A stretch of 28,645 nt of DNA. Origin: Corallococcus exiguus (GTDB taxonomy: Bacteria; Myxococcota; Myxococcia; Myxococcales; Myxococcaceae). Location: NCBI RefSeq assembly GCF_012985235.1, contig NZ_JABELB010000107.1. One strand, written 5' to 3'. The translations under genes and the position numbers were made by a program. Positions 9,715 to 28,020 of the stretch are shown here, piece after piece (the first letter of the stretch is position 1; the number at the start of each line of letters is the position of its first letter). Under the pieces are notes generated by a model. That model had not been told where the DNA came from. It did no database searches and saw only the letters and a program-made list of their open reading frames with translations.

Positions 9715-10104
9715 GGGACACCTGCTCGCGGGCGTGGGGTTCGGCCGCGAGTCATTGCGAGCCCCATGCCGTCATCGCTCCGCCCTGGAACGGCGATGCA
9801 CCGCTCCGGACTGGCACGGACACTCGCTCCATTCCGGTGCGCGGTGTTCCAGAGTGGAGCGCATTTCGAACGACCAGCGCGCACGGCTCGCGTCGTCGTT
9901 CCCAGCAAGGCCAAGCTCTTCGGCATCCACACGGAGATGTATTCATTGGGCGGTCTGGGTGATCATCTCACCGGTGGCGACCGCGTGACCTTCCGCTGGA
10001 TCCGCGACTGAGTGAGCTTGGATTGCGTCGCGGCGTCTGTTCGAATGCCCTCCTGTCAGCGGGCCAGGATGCTCCGGCCCGGTGGCCCCCACCCCGGAGG
10101 AAGC

Positions 10105-10332
10105 ATGAAGGCATCGCGACTGAAGCAGACGATTCCTGGATTCGCGCTGATCATCGGCATCATGGCGGGTACGGCCCTGGCCATGGTTCCCGGCTCCACG
10201 GCGGAGACGACCGATAACCAGACGTCCGCGGTCCAGATGATCTGTTCGCGCACCTGCAAGCCGTGCTCGACCCAGATGGAGTGCGGCACGAGCGGCGGTT
10301 CCTGCGGGGTCTGGCGCTGCACCCAGCCGTAA
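10105..10332 (+). CDS. Small secreted cysteine-rich peptide (75 aa precursor: signal peptide plus a core of about 45 aa with 6 Cys)
   Basis: GGAGGA lies 5 nt upstream of the ATG at 10105. The N-terminus MKASRLKQTIPGFALIIGIMAGTALAMVPGSTA is a signal peptide. The core is CSRTCKPCSTQMECGTSGGSCGVWRC. Confidence 0.5.
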   Translation: MKASRLKQTIPGFALIIGIMAGTALAMVPGSTAETTDNQTSAVQMICSRTCKPCSTQMECGTSGGSCGVWRCTQP

Positions 10333-10417
10333 ACACCGAGGCTGGCAAAACAAAGCGCCTCCGAGTCCCAGGACTCGGAGGCGCTCTTCTGCGGATTCGT
10401 GAAGACCGCTGAACGCT

Positions 10418-11302
10418 TCAGCCCTGCGCGGAGCGGGGCTTGCGCGTGGACTTCTTCGTCGTCGCGATCTCCAGCGACAGGTCCATGGCCCGCGCCGAGT
10501 GCGTCAGCGCGCCCATCGACACGAAGTCCACGCCCAGCTTCGCCAGCCGGGGCAGCCGATCCAACGTGACGCCGCCCGACACTTCGATGGGCACGCGGCT
10601 CGCCGTCAGCTTCACCGCTTCGCGGATCTGCGCGTCGTCCATGTTGTCCAACATGATGACGTCCGCGCCCGCGGCGATGGCCTCCTCCAGCTGCTTGAAG
10701 TTGGTGACCTCCACTTCAATCTTCACCAGCCGGGGACCGTTCAGCTTCGCGCGGCGCACCGCTTCGGTGATGTCGCCACCTACCGCCGCGATGTGGTTGT
10801 CCTTGATGAGGATGCCGTCGAAGAGGCCGAAGCGGTGGTTGGACGCGCCGCCCATGCGCACCGCGTGCTTCGCGAGGCCCCGCATGCCCGGCGGCGTCTT
10901 GCGCGTGTCCAGCACCCGCAGCTTCGAGCCTCGCACGGAGGTCATCGCCTGCTGGGCCAGCGTCGCGATGCCGGCGGCGCGCTGCACCAGGTTGAGCGCC
11001 GTGCGCTCCGCGGCCAGCAGCGAACGCAGCTTGCCGTGGACGCGCGCGGCGACCACCTTCGGTTTGATCTCCTCGCCGTCGCGCTTGAGGACCTCCACCT
11101 CCACCTCCGCGTCCACCATGTGGAAGACGCGGACGAAGGCGTCCAGGCCGGCGACGATCATCTGCTCCTTCGCGACCAGCTCACCGCTGCCCTCCGCTTC
11201 GGCGGGGACCACCGCCAGCGAGGTGACGTCCCCCGCAGCACCCAGGTCCTCGTCGAGGGACAGCGCGATGAGCCGATCGAGATAATCCTGCTGCACTTCC
11301 AC
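10418..11302 (-). CDS. nadC: Nicotinate-nucleotide pyrophosphorylase (quinolinate phosphoribosyltransferase)
   Basis: Family motifs are present: LDEDLGAAGDVTS, RVLDTRKTPPGMRGL, HRFGLFDGILIKDNH, GADVIMLDNM. The start lies 3 nt downstream of the valS stop. Confidence 0.9.
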   Translation of the reverse strand: MEVQQDYLDRLIALSLDEDLGAAGDVTSLAVVPAEAEGSGELVAKEQMIVAGLDAFVRVFHMVDAEVEVEVLKRDGEEIKPKVVAARVHGKLRSLLAAERTALNLVQRAAGIATLAQQAMTSVRGSKLRVLDTRKTPPGMRGLAKHAVRMGGASNHRFGLFDGILIKDNHIAAVGGDITEAVRRAKLNGPRLVKIEVEVTNFKQLEEAIAAGADVIMLDNMDDAQIREAVKLTASRVPIEVSGGVTLDRLPRLAKLGVDFVSMGALTHSARAMDLSLEIATTKKSTRKPRSAQG

Positions 11303-11305
11303 CTC

Positions 11306-14300
11306 CTACCGGCGCGCCTTGCGAGCCGGCTTGCCCCGAGTGGTCTTCTTCGCCGCGGCCTTCTTCGCGGCGGTCTTCTTCCCCGCCGCCTTCTTCGCCG
11401 AAGCCTTCTTCGCAGGAGCCTTCTTCACCGCCGCCTTCTTCGCGGCCGTCTTCTTGCCCGCTGCCTTCTTCGCGGAAGCCTTCTTCGCAGGGGCCTTCTT
11501 CGCGGCGGACTTCTTGCTCGCCGCCTTCTTCGCGGAGGCCTTCTTCGCAGGGGCCTTCTTCACCGCCGCCTTCTTCGAGGAGGCCTTCTTCGCAGGGGCC
11601 TTCTTCACCGCCGCCTTCTTCGCAGGGGCCTTCTTCGTCGGAGCCTTCTTCACCGGCTTCGCCGAACCCTCCGGAGCCTCGCGGGCGTCGCCGCCCTCCT
11701 TGGCCCGGTCGAACTCGCGCATCGCGTCGTCCACGAGGCCCATGCTCATGTACGCGACGCCCAGGTCGTGGTGGTCCGCCGGGGACAGCCCTTCCTTGGT
11801 GCCCTCGCGCAGCTTGTTGAGGGCCTCCTCCACCACCGGATCCGCGGCCTGGGGCGCCTGCGAAGCCTCTTCGGCTTCAATCTCGCCCTTCAGCTCCTGG
11901 CCCAGGTTCACCGCATCGTCCTTCGGTGCCTGCGGCTCGGTGGCCACCTTCACATGGGCGCTCTCGGGCGCGGGGGACTCGGACGCTTCAGGGGCTTCGG
12001 ACTCGGTGCTGCCCGGCAACGGCGACGGCGTCTCGGACATGGGGGGCTCCGGGGCGATGCGCTGGAGGTGATCCTGCAGCTTGACCGTGCGCTCCTGGAG
12101 CTCCGCCACCCGGGCCTTGTCCTTCTCCACCACGTCCGGCGGAGCACGGGCCACGAAGTTCGGGTTGTCCAGCTTGCGCTGCAAACCGGTGAGTTCCTGC
12201 TCGGAGCGGACGATCTCCTTCTTCAGGCGGTCGCGCTCCGCGTCCAGGTCCACCAGGCCCGCCAGGGGCACGTAGATTTCCAGGTTGCCGCTCACGAACG
12301 CCGCTGCCTGCGGAGGCTTGGCGCCCGGGGGGCCCACCACCACCTCGGACAGGCCCGCGAGCGGCATCAGGTACGCGCGCCAACGCTCCAACAGCTCGCG
12401 CGTCGTCGCGTCCGGGCTCTGCACCACCGCCTTCACCTTGGCGGACGGCGGCAGGTTGCTCTCGCCGCGCAGCGTGCGCAGGCCCTCGATGGCCGCGATG
12501 ACCGGCGCCATCTCGCCTTCCGCGGCCGCGTCCACCCACGCCGTCTCCGGCGCAGGGTACGCCGCGATGCAGATGCTCTCCGTGGGCCGGGACATCGGCA
12601 GCTTCTGCCAGATCTCCTCGGTGATGAACGGCATGAACGGGTGCATCAGCCGCAGGATGCGGTCCAGGCACGTCACCAGCACCGCGCGCGTGGTGTCCTT
12701 GGCCTCCGCGTCGTCGCCGTACAACGAGCCCTTCGCCAGCTCGATGTACCAGTCGCAGAACTCCGCCCACAGGAACTGGTACAGCGTGGACGCGGCCTCC
12801 GCGAAGCCGAACGCCTCCAGCGACGCGCGCGTCTCCTCGGTGGCCTTCTGCAGGCGGGAGAGGATCCACCGGTCCGCCAGCGTCAGCTTGCGGCCCTCCA
12901 GCGGCGTCTTGTCCAGGCTGAAGTCGCCCATGTTCATCAGGGCGAAGCGGCTGGCGTTCCACAGCTTGTTGCAGAACGCCTTGTAGCCACCCAGGCGGTC
13001 CATCGACAGCTTGATGTCACGGCCCTGCTGCGTGAGCGACGCCAGCGTGAAGCGCAGCGCGTCCGCGCCGTGCGCGGGCATGCCCTGGGGGAAGCGGTTG
13101 CGCAGCGACGGCTGCAGCGACTCCGCCTTCGCGCCGAGGATGACGTCCAGGGGATCGATGACGTTCCCCTTCGTCTTGGACATCTTCTCGCCCTTCTCGT
13201 CGCGCACCATCGCGTGCAGGTACACGGTGCGGAAGGGCACGTCGTTCATGAAGTGCAGGCCCATCATCATCATCCGGGCGACCCAGAAGAAGATGATGTC
13301 GTGGCCCGTCTCCATCACTGACGTCGGGTAGAAGGTCTGCAGGTCCGCCGTCTGCTTCGGCCAGCCCAGCGTGGAGAACGGCCACAGCGCGGACGAGAAC
13401 CAGGTGTCCAGCACGTCCGGATCCTGCGTCAGCTCCTTGCCGCCGCACTTCGGGCAGGACTCCGGCGCCGTGCGCGACACGATGACGTCCGCCGTGTCCT
13501 TCGAGCGCTCCTCCGCCGGGGTGCACGCCGCGCAGTACCACGCGGGGATCTGGTGGCCCCACCACAGCTGGCGGCTCACGCACCAGTCGTGGATGTTGTT
13601 CATCCAGTGGAAGTACGTGTTCGTCCACGACTCGGGGACGAACTTCGTGCGGCCCTCCTCCACGGCCTGGATGGCCGGCTTCGCCAGCGGTTCGATCTTG
13701 ATGAACCACTGCGGCGACAGGCGCGGCTCCACCACCGTGGTGCAGCGCTGGCAGGTGCCCACGTTCAGCTTGTGCGGCTCCTCCTTCTCCAGCAGGCCCA
13801 GCTCCGTCAGGTCCGCCAGCACCTGCTTGCGCGCCTCCCGGCTCTCCAGGCCCGCGTACTTGCCGGTGTCCTTCGTCATCCGCGCCGCTTCGTCCAGGAT
13901 GGACAGCATCGGCAGCTTGTGGCGCAGGCCCGTCTGGTAGTCGTTGAAGTCGTGCGCGGGCGTGACCTTCACCACGCCGGTGCCGAACTCCATGTTCACC
14001 AGCTCGCCGTCCGCGATGACCGGAATCTCACGGTCGGTGAGCGGCAGCGCCACGCTCTTGCCGATGAGGTCCTGGTAGCGCGGATCCTCCGGGTGCACGG
14101 CGACGGCCGTGTCGCCCAGCAGCGTCTCCGGGCGCGTCGTCGCCACGGTGAGGAAGCGCTCCGTGCCCTTCACCGGGTAGCGGATGTGCCAGAGCGAGCC
14201 GTTCTTCTCCTCGTGCTCCACTTCCAGGTCGGAGAGGGCCGTGCGGCAGGACGGGCACCAGTTGATCAGCTTCTGGGCCCGGTACATCAGGCCCTCTTCG

Positions 14301-14800
14301 TACAGCCGGACGAACACCTCGCGCACCGCGGCCGAGGACTGCTCGTCCATGGTGAAGCGCTCGCGGCTCCAGTCCAGGGACGCGCCCAGGTAGCGGTGCT
14401 GCTCACCGATGCGCGCGCCGAACTTGCCCTTCCACGTCCAGACGCGCTCGAGGAACGCCTCGCGGCCCAGGTCGTGGCGGCTCTTGCCCTCCGTCTTCTT
14501 GAGCTCCTTCTCCACCACCATCTGCGTGGCGATGCCCGCGTGGTCCGTGCCCGGCAGCCAGAGCGCGTTGAAGCCGCTCATCCGCTTCCAGCGCGTGAGG
14601 ATGTCCTGGATGGTCGCGGTGAGCGCGTGGCCGATGTGCAGGCTGCCCGTCACGTTGGGCGGCGGCAGCACGATGCTGAACGGCGGCTTGGAGGAAGGGG
14701 CTTCGGCGCGGAAGTAGTCGCGCTCCAGCCAGTGGTTGTACCACCGCGCCTCCACTTCGGAGGGCTCGTAGGCCTTGGACAGTTCAGTCGTGTCAGTCAT
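11306..14800 (-). CDS. valS: Valine--tRNA ligase with a C-terminal extension of about 230 aa ending in a Lys/Ala/Pro-rich pentapeptide-repeat tail
   Basis: Class I signatures are present ([14 protein letters not shown] as [12 protein letters not shown] as KMSKS). The editing and anticodon-binding regions and the C-terminal coiled coil are typical of ValRS. An acidic or TPR-like segment and about 20 copies of KKAxA extend the protein to 1164 aa. Confidence 0.93.
11319..11650 (-). repeat. Coding tandem repeat (15-bp unit GCCTTCTTCGCNGNN on the + strand) encoding ([15 protein letters not shown])n at the C-terminus of ValRS
   Basis: Read directly from the sequence: there are about 20 units with a higher-order periodicity of about 75 bp. 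Confidence 0.85.
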
Positions 14801-27921: not shown

Positions 27922-28020
27922 GGTAGGGCCTCCGGACCTGGTGGCCGGCCCGGTCTTCAAAACCGGTGAGGGGCTGCGAGAGCAGTCCCTGGCGAGTTCG
28001 ATTCCCGTGCCCTACCGCCA
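27922..28020 (+). tRNA. selC: tRNA-Sec (selenocysteine, anticodon UCA), 99 nt including the encoded CCA
   Basis: The 8-bp acceptor stem is GGTAGGGC/GCCCTACC, with discriminator G and CCA. The anticodon stem-loop is CCGGT-CTTCAAA-ACCGG, giving U33 and anticodon TCA. A long variable arm (GGGGCTGC-GAGA-GCAGTCCC) is present. The T-arm is GCGAG-TTCGATT-CCCGT, which has one A·C mismatch but otherwise parallels the E. coli selC T-arm. The 8/5 geometry and extra arm are tRNA-Sec hallmarks. Confidence 0.75.

Follow-up and report, generated by a model that had tools for sequence, protein, structure and literature searches.

The window analysed here is a stretch of 28,645 nucleotides of DNA from Corallococcus exiguus, a predatory soil bacterium, and the gene under study encodes a small protein with six cysteine residues in its C-terminal part. 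Its coding sequence starts with an ATG at 10105 and ends with a TAA at 10330-10332, and the 75-residue product is MKASRLKQTIPGFALIIGIMAGTALAMVPGSTAETTDNQTSAVQMICSRTCKPCSTQMECGTSGGSCGVWRCTQP (Table 1). The GGAGG motif is found just 5' of the ATG in nine of ten close orthologues, and the remaining one (L009) has AGAGG. The initial annotation had placed the 75-aa open reading frame (ORF), its GGAGGA Shine-Dalgarno sequence and an N-terminal signal-like segment at this site, and all three are borne out. An ORF of such a size is in itself weak evidence for a gene because 60 ORFs of at least 40 aa, counted on all six frames, crowd the surrounding 8 kb of high-GC DNA; two antisense ones overlap the coding sequence. 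The GC content at the first, second and third codon positions of the frame is 0.48, 0.61 and 0.87, respectively. Together with the kept Shine-Dalgarno sequence, a conserved downstream hairpin, the homologues and the low pN/pS of the scaffold residues, this third-position signature identifies 10105..10332 as a genuine gene.

Table 1 Features of the six-cysteine gene and of its surroundings in the window. pN/pS values are pooled over nine orthologues by the Nei-Gojobori method
Feature	Position	Strand	Basis	pN/pS
HExxH putative metalloprotease of the MXAN_6640 family, MYXO-CTERM-like tail	4780..6435	-		
HmuY-like secreted protein	6360..7349	-		
MVP homologue	7435..9714	-	Vault repeats and MVP shoulder domain	
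Remnant of a deleted 248-aa Cys-rich lipoprotein gene	9796..10011	+	similarity to intact genes in L002 and L016	
Promoter-like block TTGGAT, 17 nt, TCGAAT	10018..10046	+	conserved block travelling with the gene; promoter role putative	
GC-rich inverted repeat GGGCC...GGCCC in the presumed 5' UTR	10062..10082	+	partly conserved among orthologues	
Shine-Dalgarno sequence GGAGGA	10096..10101	+	read from the sequence, 3 nt 5' of the ATG	
Coding sequence, 75 codons and TAA	10105..10332	+	sequence reading; GC3; annotated identical protein; homologues	0.51
Sec-type signal-peptide-like segment, residues 1-26	10105..10182	+	family-wide features; predicted cleavage	0.45
Variable acidic linker/pro-region, residues 27-45, Ser/Thr/Ala/Pro-rich	10183..10239	+	pN/pS; length variation	0.93
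Six-cysteine core domain ICSRTCKPCSTQMECGTSGGSCGVWRCTQP, residues 46-75	10240..10329	+	invariance in 30 sequences; pN/pS; AF2	0.40
GC-rich hairpin, putative bidirectional intrinsic terminator, common to the convergent nadC	10355..10384	.	comparative folding	
Valyl-tRNA synthetase	11306..14800	-		
Selenocysteine tRNA gene, anticodon TCA	27922..28020	+	ARAGORN prediction	

Flanking regions of the gene

The gene is divergent from an MVP (vault-protein) homologue, from which it is separated by 390 bp. The initial annotation had described this interval as an upstream region shared by the two genes. The geometry is correct, but much of the interval is taken up by the remnant of a lipoprotein gene, the last 37-44 codons of which are 82-92% identical to those of the intact genes in L002 (5195-5908) and L016 (4157-4906). 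The intact copies have the lipobox LLGGVGC, and the 248-aa lipoprotein belongs to no Pfam or NCBIfam family. Presence or deletion of the lipoprotein gene is polymorphic within C. exiguus, where L016 and L018 have it intact whereas L015, L017 and the window retain only a 71-aa ORF of it, and it has been independently eroded or deleted in other species. Because the remnant corresponds to a gene that is intact in other strains, the supposedly shared upstream region is a recent deletion scar. Adjacency to MVP is seen in C. exiguus, C. coralloides, C. interemptor, C. exercitus and one further strain. A functional tie between the two genes was rejected because only five of 14 distinct contexts adjoin MVP, the lipoprotein gene originally separated the two, and the nonsynonymous rate of MVP is 10-20 times lower. 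The tie is an accident of the deletion and does not reflect a conserved divergent-promoter arrangement. The MVP homologue itself shows 97-98% amino acid identity across Corallococcus species, with a dN/dS of about 0.05, and bacterial MVP homologues in Myxococcales have already been described (bioRxiv 10.1101/872010).

A conserved block, CTTGGATTGCG...TTCGAATG, occupies positions 10017-10047 between the lipoprotein remnant and the ATG. The portion CTTGGATTGCG..GCGTCTGTTCGAATG is kept in the window, L002, L012 and L009, is looser in L010, and is represented only by its 3' part in L011. The upstream neighbourhood of L009 is a different one, and the block still goes with the six-cysteine gene in C. 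praedator, where the surroundings on that side differ. A consensus promoter scan made no sigma-70 call at the promoter-like hexamers; from its conservation, the block may be the gene's own promoter region. The inverted repeat in the presumed 5' UTR was considered as a hairpin and dropped, its comparative fold being weak (-1.6 kcal/mol).

The hairpin downstream of the gene has a consensus folding energy of -26 kcal/mol with 13 pairs over six orthologous loci, and two of its pairs keep pairing through changes on both sides. It is followed by a T-run in other species, and of the two strands in the window, that of nadC has the better U-tract. A terminator scan called nothing in the window, and the support for the hairpin is comparative folding. 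Synteny with all other species ends at 10382, at the end of the hairpin, and nadC-valS lies downstream only in C. exiguus. A link with nadC was rejected because the adjacency is confined to C. exiguus and cross-species synteny stops at the terminator. Because an Rfam scan of 9500-10600 gave only sub-gathering chance matches (miRNA models, P17), no RNA gene accounts for this region.

Distribution and annotation of the family

A search of 5.8 billion proteins retrieved the identical C. exiguus sequence and 11 relatives at 65-92% identity. More distant relatives, with identities as low as about 25-35%, came from an exhaustive profile search over 1.8 billion cluster representatives. After two rounds, the profile search converged on about 30 clusters, all scoring at least 90 bits, with nothing weaker up to E = 10. 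The initial annotation had regarded a lack of conservation in related genomes as evidence against the gene; the ORF and the cysteine pattern are conserved in orthologous and paralogous loci, all six cysteines being present in the roughly 30 clusters. Divergent paralogues occur within single genomes, as in C. sp. CA054B, which has P0006 (77% identical to the query) and P0019 (29%).

Members of the family come from a single bacterial group. All named sources are Myxococcaceae, namely Corallococcus species, Myxococcus sp. Y35, Pyxidicoccus parkwayensis and one Myxococcaceae MAG. A member that is 65% identical to the window protein is found in L013 (BNCN01000002.1), an assembly titled 'Comamonas sp. 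KCTC 72670'. It is nearly identical to a metagenomic myxobacterial copy, L001, and the 'Comamonas' assembly is probably mislabelled or contaminated. Plasmid and phage collections contain no copy of the six-cysteine gene, and carriage by a mobile element was rejected on this ground.

Several C. exiguus assemblies list a protein of 100% identity under the name 'hypothetical protein', and UniProt has it as A0A7Y1RJH8. The expectation that a gene this small would be missed in annotation is not borne out here, because the exact protein stands in both GenBank and UniProt. Neither the window peptide nor 18-30 of its relatives has an above-threshold match in Pfam, NCBIfam or PADLOC. Three orthologues score 13.6-16.2 bits (E 0.014-0.087) against Pfam DUF6520, below its gathering threshold of 25.4 bits, and the window protein scores nothing; this assignment was rejected. 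The family has no relative among PDB sequences, and a PDB fold search gave no significant match, which for a domain of 30-35 residues is weak evidence either way. Literature on DUF6310, DUF5953 or DUF6520, and Corallococcus secretome data for the six-cysteine protein, yielded nothing usable. Judged from these searches, the six-cysteine proteins appear to be a tiny new Myxococcaceae-restricted family of a familiar kind.

N-terminal segment and export

The N-terminal segment has the features of a Sec-type signal peptide. The n-region of the window protein carries a charge of +3 and precedes the hydrophobic core FALIIGIMA, which is followed by G22-T-A-L-A26. Over 30 family members, the charge of the n-region ranges from +1 to +4, and the uncharged hydrophobic stretch after it is 21-34 residues long across the family. 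Small residues occupy the -3 and -1 positions in all 30 members (ALA, ALS, TLA, SLA or ALG before [MQIVG]xP), and the invariant G22 and a proline stand at -5 and +3 of this ALA|MVP-type site, again in 30 of 30. Signal peptidase I would probably cleave at A26|M27. The initial annotation gave a mature region of 45 aa, which implies a cleavage site other than the one best supported by the sequence; the family-wide ALA|MVP site would leave 49 aa and an alternative STA|E site 42 aa, and the cysteine core itself is only 30 aa long.

A lipobox is absent: the window protein has no cysteine before residue 47, and a lipobox cysteine is missing family-wide. Membership in the bacterial lipoproteins was rejected in the absence of the motif L-[AS]-[GA]-C. 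No twin arginine occurs in the N-terminal segment across the family. Acidic residues of the six-cysteine protein sit after the hydrophobic segment. Because the n-region is positive and the acidic residues lie beyond the hydrophobic segment, an N-in/C-out orientation fits. The automatic UniRef name of one orthologue, P0004, is 'Secreted protein'.

The hydrophobic segment is unusually conserved. G12, A14, L15, G18, G22 and L25 are invariant across the family, persisting even between paralogues of 25-35% identity, and A14, G18, G22 and A26 form a small-xxx-small pattern of the kind used in helix packing. Because of this conservation, retention as a membrane anchor could be meant. The protein would then keep an uncleaved N-in anchor in the inner membrane, and the linker would hold a disulfide-rich periplasmic knob that binds or modulates a partner in the envelope. 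The N-terminal pN/pS is about as low as that of the core, the uncharged stretch is long enough to span a membrane, and tethers typically have a disordered linker of variable length that joins a hydrophobic segment to a folded domain. However, the signal-peptidase context, with small -3/-1 residues, glycine at -5 and proline at +3, is kept in every family member. Moreover, AF2 predicts no confident helix in residues 1-30, nor anywhere in residues 1-44, and no conserved neighbouring envelope gene presents itself as a candidate partner. A membrane-tethered product, the main rival reading, is accordingly unlikely, and export followed by cleavage is the preferred reading.

Linker and six-cysteine core

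The linker is 17-38 aa long across the family, is rich in Pro, Ser, Thr, Ala, Glu and Asp, and has an AF2 pLDDT below 50. An arginine or lysine lies at most four residues before the first cysteine in 26 of 30 members, and the window copy has a glutamine there. In most members of the family, this pro-like segment may be trimmed off.

The six-cysteine stretch, CSRTCKPCSTQMECGTSGGSCGVWRC, begins at 10243. C47, C51, C54, C60, C67 and C72, together with G65, are invariant in 30 sequences, and the family-wide spacing is C-x3-C-x2-C-x4-6-C-x6-C-x4-C. The core of the subfamily to which the window protein belongs reads ICSxxCKPCxxxxxCGxxxGSCGxWRC, in which K52, P53, W70 and R71 are conserved surface residues. 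An AF2 model of the core, built on 29 sequences, is compact, with one short helix and beta-bridges, at a pLDDT of 84. The net charge of the core is between -3 and +2 across the family.

Selection differs between the parts of the protein (Table 1). Within the core, in a partition chosen after seeing the alignment, pN/pS is 0.04 for the scaffold residues and 0.72 for the inter-cysteine loops. The scaffold is under strong purifying selection, and the loop value indicates relaxed rather than demonstrably diversifying selection. Compared over the same genome pairs, dN of the peptide (0.12-0.21) is 10-20 times higher than that of MVP (0.009-0.012), whereas dS (0.15-0.37 vs 0.17-0.22) does not differ in one pair and reaches at most about twice the MVP value in the others. 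Because the scaffold is constrained while the loops and the linker drift and dN exceeds that of MVP, evolution is fast only where the scaffold permits it. Within C. exiguus there are five variants with a single substitution each; four of the substitutions fall in the linker, one in the signal segment and none in the core.

The cysteines might alternatively remain reduced and chelate Cu, Zn or an Fe-S centre, which would make the product a periplasmic thiol- or metal-binding peptide. The conserved C-x3-C-x2-C resembles metal-cluster motifs, and the sole weak Foldseek matches are zinc-containing proteins, at non-significant E values of 5.7 and 7.3. However, the orientation places the domain in an oxidising compartment, no conserved histidine or methionine is available as a co-ligand, and no metal-homeostasis genes are conserved nearby. 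A match to a radical-SAM motif is meaningless for an exported domain of 30 residues. Metal binding by reduced cysteines is thus very unlikely, and the core is better read as a disulfide-bonded scaffold.

Gene neighbourhoods and autonomy of the gene

Family members lie in at least nine unrelated neighbourhoods with no recurring neighbouring gene family. A conserved immunity, receptor, maturase or transporter gene was found in none of the contexts examined. In other Corallococcus loci, a DUF6310/DUF5953 pair lies downstream (L002, at 6314-7995; L010, L011 and L012), variously eroded. DUF6310 has an internal deletion in L012 and is missing from L010, and the layout of the pair resembles an accessory two-gene module. 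The six-cysteine gene persists where the lipoprotein and DUF6310 genes on its flanks have been deleted or have decayed, and the upstream block and the terminator move with it. Its constancy in a small islet that is otherwise unstable points to an autonomous gene maintained by selection. In the locus of the Myxococcaceae MAG (L008), an unrelated 77-aa gene at 6344..6577 lies directly downstream of the family member, and its product has the lipoprotein signal LSAC and a four-cysteine C-terminal motif. These genomes may encode many small cysteine-rich exported proteins, with their genes in clusters.

A conserved N-terminus, a variable middle and a C-terminus with six cysteines in a short core are also what a RiPP precursor would show. 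In such a precursor, the N-terminus would serve as a leader for a maturase encoded elsewhere and the cysteines could end up in thioether cross-links, as in the SCIFF peptides and ranthipeptides; the basic residue that precedes the first cysteine in 26 of 30 members would be a possible processing site. However, the window copy has no basic residue before the core, and neither NCBIfam nor Pfam returns a SCIFF or RiPP-family match. No radical-SAM enzyme lies within 5-6 kb on either side at 18 loci, and at 14 loci the 6 kb flanking the gene on each side contain no conserved cyclase, peptidase or transporter gene. Furthermore, cytoplasmic RiPP maturation makes no use of a Sec-like N-terminus. A RiPP precursor is therefore highly improbable. 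As for a spurious or non-functional ORF, chance ORFs are indeed abundant on the six frames of this high-GC region and some run antisense to the coding sequence, but the GC3 signature, the conserved Shine-Dalgarno sequence, a cysteine framework invariant over 30 clusters, the scaffold pN/pS and the persistence of the gene while its neighbours decay leave almost no room for such a reading, which the conservation data effectively refute.

Comparison with known cysteine-rich peptides

Conotoxin and knottin precursors consist of a conserved signal, a variable pro-region and a short six-cysteine domain of about 30 residues with an invariant framework and variable loops. The six-cysteine family has the same organization as these animal toxin precursors, which is an analogy only and implies no homology. 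In the knottin or inhibitor cystine knot, three disulfides are formed within about 30 residues with I-IV, II-V and III-VI connectivity. The number of cysteines and the size of the domain fit here, the disulfides of the six-cysteine core being predicted ones.

Fulvocin C has eight cysteines in a pattern that differs from that of the six cysteines here. Like the six-cysteine protein, it is myxobacterial, ribosomally made and cysteine-rich, and activity on other bacteria has been reported for fulvocin. Fulvocin C of Myxococcus fulvus (Tsai & Hirsch 1981, cited in PMC8708641) is a small disulfide-rich bacteriocin of about 45 residues, and fulvocin-like matches have been reported in Corallococcus genomes (bioRxiv 10.1101/2024.10.08.616840). 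A relationship with fulvocin C was rejected at an hhalign probability of 1.1%, a provisional value that depends on the comparator sequence used. The CS-alpha/beta defensins follow the pattern C...CxxxC...GxC...CxC. Defensin-like peptides of this superfamily are present in myxobacteria, for example AdDLP of Anaeromyxobacter (PMC5116183). They resemble the six-cysteine proteins in being small cysteine-stabilised peptides from the same phylum, and CxxxC and GxC elements occur here too. However, the six-cysteine pattern, which has no CxC, is incompatible with a CS-alpha/beta defensin. In organization, the family appears closest to the venom knottin and conotoxin precursors and, in biology, to fulvocin C and the myxobacterial defensin-like peptides.

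The SCIFF peptides are named for six cysteines in forty-five residues, and the likeness lies in six cysteines within a short peptide. In contrast, the six-cysteine protein has a Sec-like signal, and its source belongs to another phylum. SCIFF was rejected because no NCBIfam family matched at E ≤ 0.1 and no radical-SAM maturase is adjacent. A class II bacteriocin was likewise rejected: the Sec-like signal is present, but no context contains a conserved immunity or ABC-transporter gene. The near-neutral core argues against a classical antimicrobial peptide. The three options named in the initial annotation, a bacteriocin-like toxin, a signalling peptide and a metal-binding peptide, are conjectural.

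Proposed mode of action

The features of the locus and of the family are consistent with the following scheme. The gene would be monocistronic, with an upstream block, a ribosome-binding site and a terminator of its own, and its 75-residue precursor would comprise three parts. A signal peptide of the Sec type (about residues 1-26) would be followed by an acidic linker that is disordered and evolves fast (27-45) and then by a core of 30 residues (46-75). Residues 1-26 would direct Sec export to the oxidising periplasm or to the exterior, signal peptidase I would cleave at A26|M27, and the six core cysteines would be oxidised in the periplasm to form three disulfides. The product would be a rigid, compact mini-protein scaffold with loops free to vary, and its function would rest on this scaffold and a few conserved surface residues, which in the subfamily of the window protein are K52, P53, W70 and R71. 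Because partner genes are neither needed nor conserved, the general Sec and Dsb machinery would suffice to make it.

The mini-protein would have its site of action outside the cytoplasm, serving there as a small effector or binding module. Because the core charge is only -3 to +2, a membrane-lytic cationic peptide is unlikely and specific binding is favoured, as by a ligand, an inhibitor or a toxin directed at a protein. Its most likely role would be that of a secreted factor in competition or predation, that is, a target-specific toxin or inhibitor rather than a membrane-disrupting cationic peptide. Taken as a whole, the model of an exported effector with three disulfides is judged somewhat better than an even guess. 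Its first part, a real exported protein with a cysteine scaffold, is far more secure than its second, a role as a competition effector.

A bolder reading, which is doubtful at present, is that these proteins may represent an undescribed class of three-disulfide mini-proteins, with a fold absent from the PDB, that serve myxobacterial predators as secreted target-specific toxins or inhibitors. Such a class would be a prokaryotic counterpart of the venom knottin and conotoxin families, made by the Sec and Dsb machinery alone. If the core is a stable, genetically encoded 30-residue disulfide scaffold with tolerant loops, it would open a new source of knottin-like scaffolds in bacteria. Another possibility is that it adds to the predation or competition factors of myxobacteria, the protein weapons of which are, to our knowledge, poorly catalogued. 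As it stands, the protein is one among many lineage-restricted small secreted hypothetical proteins, for which the present analysis defines the family, the invariant framework and the autonomy of the gene, removes the tie to the vault gene and shows that the gene was already annotated.

Other features of the window

The valyl-tRNA synthetase has a long C-terminal Lys/Ala-rich repeat tail that matches the histone-H1-like HC2 family. On the other side of the locus, beyond the MVP homologue, the HmuY-like gene and the gene for the MXAN_6640-family putative metalloprotease lie next to each other on the same strand; the HmuY-like gene is absent from the corresponding position in L010 and L011. A selenocysteine tRNA gene is predicted near the far end of the window (Table 1).
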